Below the pieces are notes generated by a model that saw nothing but the letters and a program-made list of their open reading frames with translations, was not told the DNA's origin and searched no databases. The position numbers were made by a program, and so were the translations under genes. DNA of 64,000 bases, taken from NCBI GenBank assembly GCA_902781465.1, contig CACZJK010000002.1, positions 38,783 through 102,782 on the forward strand, read 5' to 3'. The stretch comes from an uncultured Pseudomonadota bacterium. Lineage in GTDB: Bacteria > Pseudomonadota > Alphaproteobacteria > Rs-D84. Of this stretch, positions 9,152-57,623 are shown piece by piece (position 1 is the first letter of the stretch; each line of letters starts with the position of its first letter).

Positions 9152-9556
9152 ATGTCAAGAAGACACTCTTGTACCAGCGATGCGAATATGTCCCTGACGC
9201 CAATGATTGACATTATGACAACATTGTTGGCGGTTTTTATGGTGACTACTCCAATGTTGACATCTGGTATAGATATTGAATTGCCACGTGCAGGAACTTC
9301 TGCGATGACTGGCAACGATCATGCAATTCAGATAAGTGTTGATGCGCGTGGAAATTATTATTTATTAAATCAACAATTGCCGCGTGATGAAATTGTAAAA
9401 CGTGCGGTTGCGATGCGTGGCGAAAATCCAAATTTGGCAATTACTTTAAGTGGTGATACGCATGCCGATTATGGTGCGGTTATGTCTATGATGGGTAAAT
9501 TAAAAGATGTTGGTTTTCAACGTGTAGGTTTACGAACAAAACTTGATGATAAATGA
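9152..9556 (+). CDS. tolR: TolR (ExbD/TolR family)
   Basis: LTPMIDIMTTLLAVFMVTTP, GDTHADYGAVMSMM. Confidence 0.92.
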   Translation: MSRRHSCTSDANMSLTPMIDIMTTLLAVFMVTTPMLTSGIDIELPRAGTSAMTGNDHAIQISVDARGNYYLLNQQLPRDEIVKRAVAMRGENPNLAITLSGDTHADYGAVMSMMGKLKDVGFQRVGLRTKLDDK

Positions 9557-10302
9557 TGAATAAAGATGTGCAATTTCAGAGCGAAAATTTTTTGATGTCT
9601 GTGCTTGGACATCTTGTTTTGGTTGCGTTGATAATGTTGTCTTTTTCTGTTGTTATTGAACGTGCAAAATTGGTGACGCCAAATCGTATTCAAATCACAG
9701 AAATAGATTTGAAAAATGTTAAAATAAGTGGTGACGAAACTAAACTTTATAACACCAATCAGATCAAGCCAGACGACAATGTAAAAACAGATAAAAAAAC
9801 CGAAGAAAAGAAAAATACAGAAATTGAAAAAATTGACTTGAAACAACCAACTATGGTTGACAATGAAAGCAAAGATTTAAAAAAAGAAAAAACAAAGAAA
9901 AAAGACGAAAAAAAGGTAGAAGATAAACCTGCTCCACGTAAAAAAACAGTTGTGCGGGTTAATCGTGAAGTGTTGTCAATTGACAGAACTATGACAGTAT
10001 CGGTTGCGGATGCTTTGCGTGTTGCTTTGACGCGTTGTTGGAATATTGATACGACGCATCCTGGTATTGAAGATATGCGTCTTACTGCGCATATAAAATT
10101 CTTGCCAACAGGTGTTGTTGACCGCCTTTGGTTTGAATCAGAATCGCGCGCACAAACAGATGCTGATTTTGCCTATGTGCTTGATACGGCCAAGGCGGCG
10201 ATAAAAACCTGTTCTCCGTTTTCGATGTTGCCACGTAATGAATATTCTAAATGGCGTGATACTTCTGTCACTTTTTATCCAAGCAAAGGAAAAGTTATGT
10301 AA
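9553..10302 (+). CDS. tolA: TolA-like protein
   Basis: N-terminal TM with SxxxH motif (SVLGH), Lys/Glu-rich linker, C-terminal RCWN..AIKTCSPF domain; follows tolR. Confidence 0.8.
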   Translation: MMNKDVQFQSENFLMSVLGHLVLVALIMLSFSVVIERAKLVTPNRIQITEIDLKNVKISGDETKLYNTNQIKPDDNVKTDKKTEEKKNTEIEKIDLKQPTMVDNESKDLKKEKTKKKDEKKVEDKPAPRKKTVVRVNREVLSIDRTMTVSVADALRVALTRCWNIDTTHPGIEDMRLTAHIKFLPTGVVDRLWFESESRAQTDADFAYVLDTAKAAIKTCSPFSMLPRNEYSKWRDTSVTFYPSKGKVM

Positions 10303-10332: not shown

Positions 10333-10334
10333 AT

Positions 10335-10669
10335 GCCGGGTGTTCAATAAGCCGGATTCTGTACAGCCTAAAACCAGTCATAAAAACAAGTTAAAGGTTG
10401 CAAGCATAATTAATCTGCACAATGCGTTGCCGCAAAGCGTCAAGCCCTCTACCCGATTCTCGTAACGGCCAGGACAAGCCTTGAATCCTGTTTGAGGTTG
10501 CTGCACATAGAGATTGCCCGTTTCACCGTGACTTAACACGCTCGTCTCTGCTGCTCTAATCATCAGGTTGCCCTGTGTGGTTGTTAACCACTATGTTGTC
10601 CCCGCAGTCCGGACTTTCCTCTTTGTCGTGATCTGAAAGACGACAAAGCTATGCTTTTTCGCACCCAAC
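10335..10669 (-). ncRNA. rnpB: RNase P RNA (compact)
   Basis: Minus strand carries GAGGAAAGTCCGGAC (CR-I) and ACAGAATCCGGCTTA (CR-V); P1 GTTGGGTG/CACCCGGC. Confidence 0.95.
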
Positions 10670-47372: not shown

Positions 47373-49292
47373 ATGAATCAGACATTATTAATTATATCGT
47401 CAATACTTGGATTTTTATTATTTGTTAATTTGATTTGTTTGTTTTTTATTTCGCGCAAATCTCAACGTGTTATGCAATCTTTATTGGAAATTATGACGCG
47501 TCCGGAACAAGCAAAAGTCAAAGACGCAACGCGTGTATTACAGACCATATTAAAAGACGAAATCGCCAAGATAGATAACAATTTCAAATCTTTGTCGGAT
47601 ACTTTATCTAATCAAATTGCGCACACCGAAGAAATCAAACACAATCTTGGTGAACAGAACGACAAATTGGTTGCGACAGCCGATGAAGCAACCAAGAAAA
47701 TCGCACTTATGTCGCAAAGACTTGATAATACTATTGATGGTTTAAATAATATAGTATCTTCTAATGGCTGGGTGGAAGTACAACATAGCACTGACAACTT
47801 TTCTGCGACAATGGAAACATTGTTAAATAAAATATCAGATACAACCACAACGGCGACTGAAAACGCAACAAAAGTCCAAGAACAAATCAATCAATGCATT
47901 GAAACAGAAAACCAAATCAGCGAACAATTACAGTCGCATTTTACTAATAATACTGAAAATATGGAAAAATTGTCTGCATCGGCGGCTGATTTGCAACAAA
48001 AATTGTCTGATTTAAGCACCAGTGTCACAGGCGGTTTTGAAAACGTGACAACTGCGTCCCAAGGCTATGACGAAACAATGCATCAAAATGATAAATTATT
48101 AAGTGATTATCTGACAAAATTATCTGAATTTACAAAACGCGCAGGCAAAGAATTGACACGCCAAGTAAACACTATGACCGAAACCGCAAATGTAGTTGGT
48201 GCAAATGTTCGTATGGCTGAATCTTCGATTGATAAACAGTTGCGCAAATTAGAATCTGCGATTGATTCATTGAACAATTCAACAACCAACACAACAGAAT
48301 CTGTGCGTGGAATCACAAATGAATTGGCAGGATTAACCAATCGTTTCGACAGTGAAATTCATGAATTTTCAACTGGTGTAGTCAAAGAAATCAAAGATGT
48401 ATCTGGCGTGGCAAACGAAACATTGGAAAACACAAAATCTGCTGCAACTGAATTTGCAGATTCTGTAAAGAGTATGGGTATTGGTGTTCGTGAAACATTG
48501 ATTGAAATGAACAAAGCGCACACTCAATTATCAGGACAATCTGAAAACCTTATTAAAATGTCGCAAGACACCACAGAACAATTAAAACCTTTGTCCGAAT
48601 TGATTGAAAAGTATTATGTGGCCCTGCCCGATTTGGCGGCTGGTTCACGCGATATGAGTGAGAATTTGAACACTATCGTCAACACATTGGTTGAAAAAAT
48701 CAATACAATGAATACAACGATATCTGAATCTTTGGACAAGATAAATACTTCATCAACACAATTAGGTGATTTGGCGGGCGAATCACGTCAACAAATGATA
48801 GATTTGATGTCTGATTATGCCAAGGCTGTGGAAGCAATGCAAAGTTTGAACAAACAAATGATGGTCGCGCGTGCCTCTGCCCCTATGGATGCAATAAAAG
48901 TTGCACCTAATGCACCTTTTAAGCCGGTCAGCACGAAAGACTTTTTGAATAATGTTGATAAGTTATTTGAAAAATTATATGAACAAGCAGTTGATTTAAC
49001 ACGTGCAACAAATTCAGAAATTCCTGAAATCGTGTGGAATAAATATAATAGTGGCGACACAAAGATATTCGCGAAATGGTTGGTAAAAATGTTTAACGCA
49101 ACCGATAAAAAGCAGATTCGCGAATTGTTAAAATCTGATAAAATATTTAATTCCCAGGCAACACAATTTGTGCGCAATTTTGAAAAAATATTGGCTGGGG
49201 CTGATCAAACCAATGATGCAGACAAATTAAAAGCAACATTGTTAAAAACGGACCTTGGGACGATATATACTGCCTTGCACAAGAATATGTAA
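47373..49292 (+). CDS. Membrane-anchored long coiled-coil protein, TipN/GPR(RgsE)-like
   Basis: N-terminal TM, long coiled coil, C-terminal WNKYNSGD..F..FEKIL..TDLGTIY. Confidence 0.65.
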   Translation: MNQTLLIISSILGFLLFVNLICLFFISRKSQRVMQSLLEIMTRPEQAKVKDATRVLQTILKDEIAKIDNNFKSLSDTLSNQIAHTEEIKHNLGEQNDKLVATADEATKKIALMSQRLDNTIDGLNNIVSSNGWVEVQHSTDNFSATMETLLNKISDTTTTATENATKVQEQINQCIETENQISEQLQSHFTNNTENMEKLSASAADLQQKLSDLSTSVTGGFENVTTASQGYDETMHQNDKLLSDYLTKLSEFTKRAGKELTRQVNTMTETANVVGANVRMAESSIDKQLRKLESAIDSLNNSTTNTTESVRGITNELAGLTNRFDSEIHEFSTGVVKEIKDVSGVANETLENTKSAATEFADSVKSMGIGVRETLIEMNKAHTQLSGQSENLIKMSQDTTEQLKPLSELIEKYYVALPDLAAGSRDMSENLNTIVNTLVEKINTMNTTISESLDKINTSSTQLGDLAGESRQQMIDLMSDYAKAVEAMQSLNKQMMVARASAPMDAIKVAPNAPFKPVSTKDFLNNVDKLFEKLYEQAVDLTRATNSEIPEIVWNKYNSGDTKIFAKWLVKMFNATDKKQIRELLKSDKIFNSQATQFVRNFEKILAGADQTNDADKLKATLLKTDLGTIYTALHKNM

Positions 49293-49353
49293 ATATAAAA
49301 CGGCATATATGAATATGCCGTTTATTTTTTCGCTTTTATTCGCATATATTTTT

Positions 49354-49362
49354 TGCTAGAAT
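49354..49362 (+). promoter_or_regulatory. Extended -10 promoter of leader copy 1
   Basis: TGcTAGAAT with the conserved G 7 nt downstream; same spacing in copies 2 and 3. Confidence 0.65.
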
Positions 49363-49368
49363 AAATTC

Positions 49369-49547
49369 GTCAGAAAGAGTTTTTCTGATGAGGCTTAAGA
49401 ACCTGAATAATCCGCGTCAAAGATATGACGTTAAATATCTCCAATCAAATATATGGTTGGAGGGCTGTGATATACATAAATAAACGGCGCAATTTTCGGA
49501 TTAAATTGTTCTTAACCTCCAACCGCCCTTTTAAGAGCGGTTTTCTT
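49369..49547 (+). ncRNA. Structured leader RNA, copy 1 (attenuator / C4-CI-like candidate)
   Basis: Three homologous copies with compensatory pairs; ends in an ACCGC..GCGGT hairpin plus T-rich tail. Confidence 0.85.
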
Positions 49548-49570
49548 GTAATAGAAAACGGGGGTAAAAA

Positions 49571-50038
49571 ATGAAAAAATCTGTTTTAATAATGGCGACA
49601 CTTTTATCTGTGCCATCATACGCAACAACCATGTGTGCAGAAAACGATTCTGTTGCAGTAATCCTGGACCCAAGTATTAACGGAACAGGATTTGGATATG
49701 AAAAAAGCAGAGGAACATGGTCAACTTCTTTTCCTTACGGTTATGTATCTGGTATAAGCGTATGTTTGAATAGCAACAAAGGCCAAGGAACTGGTGGATG
49801 GGTGGCAAATTTGACAGACATTAATCCTGATGGCGAAGAAAAAACGGTTGCAGGTTCTGAAAAATATGGTCGTTATTGTTGGTGTAAGGCTACACATCCT
49901 GTGTCCTCGCGTTGGGTATTTAACTCTGATCGAGGATCGGCTTCTTCTTGTAATTCCGTTTGTGCGGAAAACTGTGGGTATTACACACGAATTAACGAAG
50001 CAATGCGCACAGGTTTATTAAATTCAATAAACAATTAA
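49571..50038 (+). CDS. Secreted Cys-rich protein
   Basis: Signal peptide MKKSVLIMATLLSVPSYA; YCWC and CNSVCAENC motifs. Confidence 0.8.
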   Translation: MKKSVLIMATLLSVPSYATTMCAENDSVAVILDPSINGTGFGYEKSRGTWSTSFPYGYVSGISVCLNSNKGQGTGGWVANLTDINPDGEEKTVAGSEKYGRYCWCKATHPVSSRWVFNSDRGSASSCNSVCAENCGYYTRINEAMRTGLLNSINN

Positions 50039-55815: not shown

Positions 55816-55904
55816 GGAGCGTTGGCAGAGTGGTAATGCAGCGGATTGCTAATCCGTGACCGTAGTAATGCGGTCCATAGGTTCGAGTCCTATACGCTCC
55901 GCCA
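55816..55904 (+). tRNA. tRNA-Ser(GCT)
   Basis: GGAGCGT/ACGCTCC acceptor stem, loop TTGCTAA, long variable arm, GCCA end. Confidence 0.96.
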
Positions 55905-56530: not shown

Positions 56531-57256
56531 TTAATAAAATTTATCTTCGACCCGGTCATACATACATGGCGTGCCATTTTTGTCGAGAACGGGAATCATG
56601 TCTACCAATACCTCCCCTGTAGAGGATAAAACTTTATAATCATATATTCGTAAATTATTATTTGTTTGCTTTAACGCAACGCCATTATAATTAACATCAA
56701 ACAAGTAAATATTATTTGTATTTAAGCCAGAATTTTCTGACGTGCTACTTTCGTGTATATTTGACGTAGTTAAATTTGTAATTTTACACGTATTATTTCC
56801 TGGATAAAGTAATAAATCATATCTGTATATTTTGTTATTTTCAACTGTGGCTACTTTTATATTTGGTTGTCTAACAACTCTAAACATTAATTGACTGCTA
56901 TCTATACCAATATAAATACCATTTTCAGTGGCTAAACTGCCTGCAATTCGCATCTCATATTGTGTTGTAAGATATTTAACAGTCAGAATATATCTATGAC
57001 CATAAACGGCTGGATTCCCCGTATCAATATATTGTGTCCCGGTGGATTCCAAATATTCAATCGGTATATAACTACTTGCCCAGCCTTTGAAAGTATACCC
57101 TCGTTTGGTTGGGGTGGTTGGTAATAATATATCATTACCACTTTCACATGTTGTGGTTGCGTAAACATCATCGCCTATATACCAATTTAATGTTTCGGTT
57201 TGTGCGTATGCTGTGCCACAAAACAGCATTGATAATAATATTAAAAACTTTTTCAT
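56531..57256 (-). CDS. Secreted protein with an N-terminal InlB B-repeat-like domain and a beta-rich domain (cassette gene A)
   Basis: Start ATG 57256; signal peptide; LPTTPTKRGYTFKGW; EYLESTGTQYIDTG..DMIPV..MYDRV. Confidence 0.8.
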   Translation of the reverse strand: MKKFLILLSMLFCGTAYAQTETLNWYIGDDVYATTTCESGNDILLPTTPTKRGYTFKGWASSYIPIEYLESTGTQYIDTGNPAVYGHRYILTVKYLTTQYEMRIAGSLATENGIYIGIDSSQLMFRVVRQPNIKVATVENNKIYRYDLLLYPGNNTCKITNLTTSNIHESSTSENSGLNTNNIYLFDVNYNGVALKQTNNNLRIYDYKVLSSTGEVLVDMIPVLDKNGTPCMYDRVEDKFY

Positions 57257-57280
57257 CACTTCCCCCTGTTTCTTTTCTTT

Positions 57281-57372: not shown

Positions 57373-57553
57373 TTAAAAGATTACCGCCAGAAAATCAGGC
57401 GGTTGGAGGTTAGTAACAATTCTATATGAGATTGCGCTGCTTATTCCGTATATTCACAGCCCTCCAACCTTATATTTGATTGGAGATTTTAACGTCTTCA
57501 TGGACGCATATAGATACAGGTTACTAAGCCTCATCAACAAAACTCTTGCTGAC
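57373..57553 (-). ncRNA. Structured leader RNA, copy 2
   Basis: Homolog of copies 1 and 3 with compensatory TTAGTAAC/GTTACTAA; TGaTAGAAT at 57560-57568. Confidence 0.85.
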
Positions 57554-57623
57554 AGTTTTATTCTATCAAATAATAATCAGCAATGAAAGTAAAAAATTAA
57601 AAACCACCCAAACTGGTGGTTTA

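Follow-up and report, generated by a model that had tools for sequence, protein, structure and literature searches.

C4/CI-type antisense RNAs are known as immunity devices that phages, plasmids and islands of Proteobacteria carry in single copy. C4 is excised by RNase P to an RNA of ~77 nucleotides (nt) that acts in trans. Three-element attenuators, such as the S-box/SAM-I leader and the PyrR-controlled pyr leader, sense a metabolite or a protein via a defined aptamer or binding site. Here we describe a ~190-nt leader that occurs three times in a 64,000-nt stretch of DNA (the window; contig CACZJK010000002.1, positions 38,783 to 102,782) from an uncultured alphaproteobacterium of the order Rs-D84. 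We found that the leader has the plan of the phage a1b1-C4 antisense module, that it can adopt two mutually exclusive folds, and that each of its 39 copies in the genome carries a pairing code of its own. Our favoured reading, to which we give about an even chance, is that the leader represents the phage module in a chromosomal, multi-copy form and acts mainly in cis, as a transcription switch that is off by default.

In phage P4, the CI RNA is processed and pairs with seqA upstream and seqC downstream, which leads to transcription termination (PMC4825925). sRNA-Xcc1 is an 88-nt RNA characterized by Northern blot and end mapping (PMC2996969). It is found in Xanthomonas integron cassettes and Xylella islands, and in Xylella it adjoins IsrK and C4 genes (PMC12189769). 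It was described as a free-standing, trans-acting RNA 5′ of symE (bioRxiv 10.1101/2025.06.18.660453). IsrK (RF01394, Gifsy-1) has a long form whose translation is activated by a short, terminated form.

The plan of the P1 locus was taken from the Rfam consensus and the P1 sequence. A -10 box is followed by a 7-bp hairpin and by the abutting CCGG[UUUUGACAG]CCUG, the loop of which is target a1 (UUGACAG). Three bases on lies b1 (GUUAGUG), then a terminator-like hairpin, then C4. The latter consists of a closing stem, a hairpin, a second hairpin with b′ (CACUAAC) in its loop, the single-stranded a′ (CUGUCAA), the closing strand and ACC. With the search tool used here, C4 scored 68.8 bits in P1 and 74.9 bits in P4, and in both it was preceded by c4-a1b1 (RF03163) and IsrK-type matches. 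C4 (RF01695) and c4-a1b1 belong to the same Rfam clan, CL00128.

Plan of the leader

The original prediction had reported three ~70-nt units, each with a closing stem followed by GCC (49455-49524; 57469-57401 on the minus strand; 62911-62979). All of its sequence strings were found where it had placed them in all three copies. The three stretches are copies of one leader, which starts at a sigma-70-type -10 box and ends directly before a gene. The parts of copy 1 are as follows; the fold counts given below for the unit come from the alignment of all 39 copies.

49354-49362, plus strand: putative extended -10 box of the promoter (TGcTAGAAT)
49369-49389, plus strand: hairpin P0 (GUCAGAAAGAGUUUUUCUGAU), counterpart of hairpin 1 of Rfam c4-a1b1
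49390-49405, plus strand: hairpin H1 (GAGG, 8-nt loop CUUAAGAA, CCUG)
49395-49402, plus strand: site V1 (TTAAGAAC), an a1-like target contained in the H1 loop plus the next C, pairing with 49508-49515
49408-49414, plus strand: site V2 (TAATCCG), a single-stranded, b1-like target, pairing with CGGATTA at 49497-49503
49415-49430, plus strand: hairpin P3 (CGUC...GACG), in the place of the terminator hairpin of IsrK/P1
49439-49446, plus strand: element A (CUCCAAUC), alternative partner of B and putative anti-antiterminator
49455-49527, plus strand: C4-like unit, from B through GCC
49455-49463, plus strand: element B, GGTTGGAGG (RNA GGUUGGAGG)
49464-49488, plus strand: hairpin P5
49490-49508, plus strand: hairpin H6, with V2′ in its loop (49497-49503)
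49508-49515, plus strand: V1′ (GTTCTTAA)
49516-49524, plus strand: element C, CCTCCAACC (RNA CCUCCAACC)
49525-49527, plus strand: GCC after the closing stem
49521-49547, plus strand: terminator-like hairpin (AACCGC...GCGGUU) and U-rich tail, with AACC in common with element C
49560-49564, plus strand: ribosome-binding site GGGGG
49571-50038, plus strand: gene (ATG at 49571) for a 155-amino-acid protein with a signal-peptide-like start

A motif search of the genome gave 43 raw matches, from which four antisense artefacts were removed, leaving 39 sense copies. Every one of them lies immediately 5′ of a gene, and most of these genes have a signal-peptide-like start, as judged by eye. A box T-A-(G/T/A)-A-A-T is conserved in the aligned copies, 6-7 nt 5′ of the first hairpin. 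A fortieth, diverged copy (G000:C7:8665-8751, minus strand; positions 1501-1587 of locus L185) was recognised via the Rfam search.

Compared with P1/P7 C4, the leader has all parts in the same order, including P0 abutting H1 with no spacer, as in c4-a1b1, and H1 with its 8-nt loop as target 1. The unit folds into a closing stem, two hairpins, a 7-8-nt single strand and RCC after the stem, as C4 does. The upstream sites are complementary to the single strand and to the loop of the second hairpin, and specificity is set by compensated changes. Even the bulge is alike. The pairing of target 1 runs into the closing stem over one unpaired base (GAGG-C-UUAAGAAC with GUUCUUAA-CCUC), and the consensus of the C4 family has GGG-U-UUGGCA with UGCCAA-CCC. 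The likeness to P4 CI is that an RNA from the leader pairs with an upstream site of the same transcript type, here with a terminator as the outcome in the fold model.

There are also clear differences from C4. The closing stem of the leader has 9 bp rather than 17 bp, and the leader lacks the downstream a2/b2 sites at the ribosome-binding site. C4 is single and stands before icd-ant, whereas the leader is present in tens of copies per genome before secreted-protein genes. The leader also adds two parts with no described counterpart in C4, namely element A, which competes for the closing stem, and a terminator that overlaps the closing strand. In the P1 locus (L192, 1478-1525), UUACGCCC just 5′ of C4 could, by eye, pair with GGGGCGUGA of the 5′ closing strand, and it may be a counterpart of element A. 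P4 differs further in having seqC and trans immunity; a second site was not found in the leader.

sRNA-Xcc1 resembles the unit in its 9-bp closing stem, the A-rich internal loop of the first hairpin (GAAUA.../...AAUAAG), the second hairpin and a UUUGAG-type single strand, with CCC(U) after the stem. It differs in that it has not been described as a leader joined to a terminator and carrying its own targets.

Covariation and duplex energies

The original prediction noted that an 8-nt segment beside the closing stem (V1′) is complementary to an upstream site (V1). This complementarity is real and far beyond chance. Over the 39 copies, seven of the 12 pairs of the V1 helix have changed on both sides; at one of them, for instance, we counted 21 AU, 17 GC and one CG, with none unpaired. 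The 8-mer is only half of the pairing, as V2 also pairs with V2′.

We compared two sets of helices. The first, the off set, comprises the long-range duplex, A:B, P0, P3 and P5. It was paired in 94.8% of alignment cells, and 20 of its 36 pairs had changed on both sides; pairing fell to 38-49% when the partners were slid against each other. The second, the on set (H1, H6 and B:C), was paired in 95.6% of cells, with 17 of 34 pairs changed on both sides. For neither set did any of 500 shuffles reach the observed values (0/500 each).

P0 was paired in 96.2% of cells (5/7 pairs changed on both sides) and P3 in 98.1% (2/4). The fold of the unit, with its closing stem and two hairpins, was paired in 95.4% (9/20), and the closing stem GGTTGGAGG/CCTCCAACC in 100% (2/9). 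A pair of the H1 stem (columns 45/60) is AU in 14 copies, GC in 13, GU in 10 and otherwise in two, and the H6 pair 199/219 is AU in 34 and UA in five.

Element B can pair with either A or C, and C has AACC in common with the last hairpin. A pairs with B in 98.4% of cells. B and C are near-invariant among the 39 copies, yet they covary twice. In the diverged copy, A (CCUGACC), B (GGUCGGGUG) and C (CACCCGACC) are all changed and still mutually complementary.

As V2 cannot be aligned reliably, it was tested by alignment-free duplex energies. The predicted duplex between the 5′ side and the 3′ side had a mean of -21.9 kcal/mol (standard deviation 2.6) for own pairs, compared with -9.6 kcal/mol (standard deviation 3.4) for the 1482 combinations of different leaders. 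In 39/39 copies the 5′ side paired best with the leader's own 3′ side, and in 37/39 the 3′ side paired best with the leader's own 5′ side.

A default-off switch in cis

The copies were folded with a nearest-neighbour model from the transcript start to the U tail, and the energies were calculated without pseudoknots. In 38/39 copies the unconstrained minimum-energy fold combined the long-range duplex, A:B and the terminator hairpin. Imposing B:C on the fold cost 10.8 kcal/mol on average (range 2.8 to 18.0). With the a1b1 side blocked, this gap between the off and on folds shrank to 2.6 kcal/mol; in the fold model, the terminator state is favoured by about 8 kcal/mol when the unit pairs with the upstream sites. 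When only A was blocked, B:C appeared in 14/39 copies. The terminator hairpin itself was found by local folding in 39/39 copies, and the tail has at least five U in eight positions in 28/39. The hairpin and the U tails suggest that transcription may terminate here. B:C overlaps 4 nt of the stem.

From these results a course of events can be proposed. Transcription would start ~7 nt past the extended -10 box. The first 45 nt would fold into the two abutting hairpins, with V1 shown in the 8-nt loop and V2 just behind. P3 and element A would follow, and A would pair immediately with the newly made B. P5, H6 with V2′ in its loop and the single-stranded V1′ would then emerge, and V1′ and V2′ would find their partners V1 and V2 in the same leader. 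As long as A holds B, C would be left free, and its AACC could join GCC...GGCGGUU as the terminator hairpin with its U-rich tail. The transcript would then stop before the gene. If B paired with C instead, the 9-bp closing stem of the C4-like fold would form, half of the terminator stem would be removed and the gene would be read. Because A and B are made first and lie 8-20 nt apart, A:B should form first, and termination should be the default. The gap falls when the a1b1 side is blocked, and B:C appears in part of the copies when A is; thus, whatever frees B from A or competes for a1b1 would be expected to switch the gene on.

Action in cis is favoured by the target being on the same molecule, by the layout of a classical attenuator and by the absence of other targets. 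The arrangement is that of three-element attenuators (anti-antiterminator, antiterminator, terminator), in that B can pair with A or with C, C overlaps the putative terminator and the terminator fold is the default; the sensor part of the leader, unlike theirs, is an antisense-RNA module with private codes. The original prediction had proposed downstream targets as in the phages. Within 170 nt 3′ of the unit, no copy-specific complementarity was found in the 39 copies (own -15.3 versus foreign -15.1 kcal/mol; Mann-Whitney P = 0.45). The second site that it had seen in copy 1 (TTAAGAGC, 49531-49538) is present, but it falls within the terminator hairpin (loop and 3′ strand), and the family shows no counterpart. 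A lenient pattern search of the genome for trans targets gave chance-level noise. Exact V1..V2 sites occurred at seven further places in the genome; five of the seven are in or opposite long reading frames, and all seven look like chance.

Several results weigh against the reading as a default-off switch in cis. We identified no input signal that frees B. The tails of 11/39 copies are U-poor, and a simple terminator scan does not call the leader hairpins of the 39 copies, because their loop is longer than 8 nt. H1 and H6 also covary, while the energies ignore pseudoknots. Pairing in cis alone would not require 39 different codes, and even near-identical copies differ in code. No Rfam family reaches its cut-off on the leaders, which are members of none of these families as Rfam defines them. 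C4 (cut-off 45 bits) had no match at E ≤ 10 in the 39 copies or in the whole genome (46 candidates scored), and our own model of the unit, R1, missed P1 C4 and P4 CI with filters off at E ≤ 10. As H1 and H6 covary, there is likely also a pseudoknotted state, in which the folded unit binds its own a1b1 sites in the manner of C4 and its targets.

Relationship to the C4 superfamily

The originally proposed likeness to C4 and CI holds in plan, element by element; C4 itself has no Rfam match and c4-a1b1 is below threshold. On the three window copies, Rfam gave nothing at its own thresholds and no relevant match at E ≤ 10, C4 and c4-a1b1 included. The latter (cut-off 46.7 bits) matched none of the 39 copies at E ≤ 10. 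It did match the 5′ half in one of 20 related or extra loci (L099) at 28.7 bits, which is below the cut-off, with E = 3.3e-5 when the locus was searched alone and 7.9e-4 within 16 kb. This match lies 37 nt 5′ of the unit, in the same orientation, and the -10 boxes coincide in the alignment.

sRNA-Xcc1 (RF02221, cut-off 53 bits) matched the unit in nine of the 39 copies over its full length (1-87), below threshold, with 28.1 to 43.3 bits and E values of 1.9e-5 to 0.076. The diverged fortieth copy is its best match in the genome (43.8 bits; 11 matches at E ≤ 10 genome-wide). sRNA-Xcc1 also matched six of the 20 related or extra loci, and all alignments were full length. All leader scores stay below 53 bits, and the three window copies have no match. 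The sub-threshold matches thus fall on the correct halves in the correct order, c4-a1b1 on the 5′ half and sRNA-Xcc1 on the unit. Since R1 does not find P1 C4 or P4 CI, common descent rests on the plan together with these weak matches. We consider common descent of the leader with the C4 superfamily likely.

Private codes and possible action in trans

Copies 1 and 3 had been placed in one specificity group and copy 2 in another. A genome-wide catalogue of the variants did not bear this out. The 39 copies contain 23 different V1 7-mers, 38 different V2 sequences and 39 different combinations, and no code was shared in any of the 741 copy pairs. Copies 1 and 3 have V1 in common but not V2, and their cross energies (-14.1 and -13.8 kcal/mol) are weak compared with their own (-21.0 and -23.8 kcal/mol). 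Copy 2 cross-pairs at -6.5 to -9.7 kcal/mol. Because copies 1 and 3 share V1 only and cross-pair weakly, the proposed groups give way to private codes.

Within the 15 closest copy pairs, differences affect 74/235 positions of the code segments, compared with 225/1887 in the rest of the leader. Loci L161 and L182, for example, differ at 4/126 other positions, and their codes differ by a compensated dinucleotide swap in V1 and another in V2. This comparison of sequences suggests that the codes might have been selected to be distinct. However, the pairs are non-independent, and the diversity of V2 (0.685 overall) is not above that of the unpaired loops (0.75-0.79); selection for distinct codes is therefore not proven.

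Such divergence would be expected from selection against cross-talk if the unit acted in trans. In this sharpened form of the original idea, RNase P would cut the 5′ end of the unit, the 3′ end would be trimmed, and the resulting ~73-nt RNA would accumulate and act on nascent leaders with matching V1 and V2, in the way of P4 CI on seqA and of P1 C4 on its targets. As every code is private, each gene would then regulate only itself, by feedback or in a self-sustaining on or off state. The nearest families are discrete trans-acting RNAs, namely sRNA-Xcc1 and the CI RNA (PMC2996969 and PMC4825925). GCC directly follows the closing stem in 37/39 copies, which compares with aCC in the consensus of C4 and aCCC in that of sRNA-Xcc1, and U stands at -1 of the unit in 32/39. 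The RNA and the protein of RNase P are both encoded in the genome, the former within the window:

10333-10667, minus strand: class A RNase P RNA gene (Rfam, 165.1 bits), for the enzyme that would cleave the unit in the case of C4-like processing

The 39 distinct codes and the narrowing of the energy gap on blocking of the a1b1 side, which is what an RNA in trans would do, also fit this explanation. Nevertheless, the target lies ~100 nt away on the same molecule, and pairing in cis should prevail unless cleavage of the RNA comes first. The divergence of the codes, counted over copy pairs that are not independent, is also expected where sequence is not constrained, given the V2 and loop diversities above. 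There is no target near the ribosome-binding site, unlike in P1, the closing stem is shorter than that of C4 (9 bp against 17 bp), and Hfq was not found in this 94.6%-complete genome. We regard action in trans as rather unlikely.

A bolder version is that each of the ~40 secreted-protein genes has its own RNA immunity circuit, in which the unit cut from a leader acts only on leaders with the same code; each gene could then stay in a self-sustaining on or off state irrespective of its paralogs, much as P4 maintains immunity. This would account for the lack of any two identical codes in the genome. If true, it would mean combinatorial, heritable surface variation in a gut symbiont with a tiny genome, with no DNA rearrangement. 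We consider it improbable.

Other explanations of the leader

It is similarly doubtful that the leader is a ligand riboswitch or the site of a dedicated RNA-binding protein, with the long-range helices as a scaffold and the likeness to C4 convergent or irrelevant. Riboswitches are usually laid out in this way, as a three-element off switch with a closing long-range helix. Some unpaired stretches are invariant, namely UUAAAAU preceding A, GCGCAAU and the P5 loop GAAUAUAUUGAAUAAG. The genes behind the leaders form one regulon-like set encoding secreted proteins, and a ligand would supply the trigger that frees B, which is otherwise unexplained. Against this, none of 4227 Rfam families matches except those related to C4, and chance hardly accounts for the element-by-element match to a1b1-C4. 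The conserved internal loop of P5 is common to sRNA-Xcc1, which is not a riboswitch. The leader also occurs before a non-secreted gene on a phage contig (see below).

Very improbably, the leader is no switch at all: a constitutive processing or stabilising module (e.g. a protected mRNA 5′ end made by RNase P) would suit the RNase P-like GCC and U at -1, and recombination among paralogs could keep a common 5′ sequence, as variable surface protein families often share their 5′ regions, but the exclusive A:B and B:C pairings with their co-changes and the overlap of C with the terminator would be useless in a constitutive module, and recombination alone fails to explain compensated private codes.

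Distribution and significance

The genome that carries the window has 898,703 bp and a G+C content of 37%. Candidatus Enterousia and the order Rs-D84 are uncultured Alphaproteobacteria with reduced genomes that live in animal guts (PMC12306168). R1 matched 126 of 151 sampled genomes of the order (105/107 in the genus, 115/121 in the family and 10/29 in other families), and the unit copies per genome in the Rs-D84 sample reach maxima of at least 32. It also matched ~59 of 80 loci searched in gut, rumen and other metagenome-assembled genomes.

In IMG/VR, one of nine pattern matches is a true copy (R1 54.1 bits, sRNA-Xcc1 39.6 bits). It lies at 9543-9620 on the minus strand of a 12,090-bp contig with 35% G+C (L202), which also encodes a large terminase (phrog_38, E = 3.7e-110), a ParB-methyltransferase and a serine integrase (phrog_95, E = 4.1e-85) with a DUF2924 neighbour. 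Here the leader precedes an operon of three genes, two of them without recognised function and the third ADP-ribosylglycohydrolase-like; none is secreted. The original prediction had supposed that the system works with no prophage present. This is not the full story, since the same leader stands on one phage-like contig. This single case fits a module that moves between phage and host.

Our searches brought up no paper on this RNA. Judging from titles and abstract openings, the Enterousia papers among those listed were not about RNA regulation, and the listed ones on sRNA-Xcc1 concerned other bacteria and did not mention this lineage. The resemblance to the phage module holds; the interpretation originally attached to it is partly supported. 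Together with the private codes, it suggests a phage switch taken over to control surface proteins gene by gene. The genes of a large family encoding secreted proteins appear to carry the entire module, targets included, as their standard 5′ leader. For RNA engineering, the leaders are of interest as a natural set of dozens of RNA-RNA code pairs that share one scaffold and are mutually orthogonal. The leader also offers a testable role for the poorly understood upstream a1/b1 sites, and it hints at a way in which bacteria that have almost no regulators could control their surface or vary it.

Other copies and neighbouring genes

The other two copies in the window have the following parts.

57375-57565, minus strand: leader copy 2, with -10 box 57565-57560, P0 57553-57533 and H1 57532-57517
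57527-57520, minus strand: copy 2 V1 (TTAGTAAC), with V2 57514-57507, V2′ 57428-57421 and V1′ (GTTACTAA) 57417-57410
57506-57492, minus strand: copy 2 P3, with A 57485-57478, B 57469-57461, C 57409-57401 and GCC 57400-57398
57403-57383, minus strand: copy 2 putative terminator hairpin, with tail to 57375
56531-57259, minus strand: copy 2 gene, 242 amino acids, with a Listeria-Bacteroides repeat, separated from the leader by a GC-rich insert
62813-63005, plus strand: leader copy 3, with -10 box 62813-62818, P0 62825-62845 and H1 62846-62861
62851-62858, plus strand: copy 3 V1 (TTAAGAAC), with V2 62863-62871, V2′ 62952-62960 and V1′ (GTTCTTAA) 62963-62970
62872-62885, plus strand: copy 3 P3, with A 62893-62900, B 62911-62919, C 62971-62979 and GCC 62980-62982
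62977-62997, plus strand: copy 3 putative terminator hairpin, followed by its tail
63060-63800, plus strand: copy 3 gene, 246 amino acids, with a signal-peptide-like start

A promoter scan gave TTTACA-17-TATAAT for copy 3. The proteins behind copies 1, 2 and 3 (155, 242 and 246 amino acids) all have signal-peptide-like starts, and the 155-amino-acid protein matched no Pfam family. The insert behind copy 2 occupies 57372-57262 on the minus strand. GC-rich inserts also lie behind the leaders at G000:C1:67650, C1:309440, C5:85, C7:39390, C9:9380 and C10:950. One conserved type, GCCGTTCTGGCTGTTCTTGGAACG...CCCCTTGTTGGGGGAGTGCGG, is present behind six leaders. As five of these six are at contig ends, the repeat seems to break the assembly. 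The diverged fortieth copy has the same plan and lies directly 3′ of a tRNA gene and 5′ of a secreted-protein gene.

Two other candidates within the leader were discarded. A hammerhead ribozyme had come to mind because of CUGAUGAG at 49385-49392. This motif varies between copies (CUGAUGGG, CUGACGAG, UCGGUGGG, CUGAUCGG), the CUGAUGA core is not invariant, no conserved GAAA follows and no Rfam hammerhead family matched. A leader peptide after the Shine-Dalgarno-like GGAGG of B had only one candidate found by eye, a 40-codon GUG frame in copy 1; the frames of other copies lack a start or have hairpin insertions.

The RNase P RNA has an insertion of ~23 nt near its 3′ end relative to the model, and the gene for the protein lies elsewhere in the genome, which also encodes Rho. 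Just 5′ of copy 1 is a gene for a 639-amino-acid protein (47373-49292, plus strand) with only weak, coiled-coil-type Pfam matches, and it closes with a strong terminator (49298-49323). Two tRNA genes, both with a long variable arm, are located at 55816-55901 (plus strand) and 62638-62725 (minus strand); between the end of the second and the promoter of leader copy 3, which is on the other strand, there are ~90 nt. The 579-amino-acid protein encoded at 57624-59363 (minus strand) is a fusion of AccD and AccA, the carboxyltransferase halves of acetyl-CoA carboxylase, with an N-terminal zinc ribbon.

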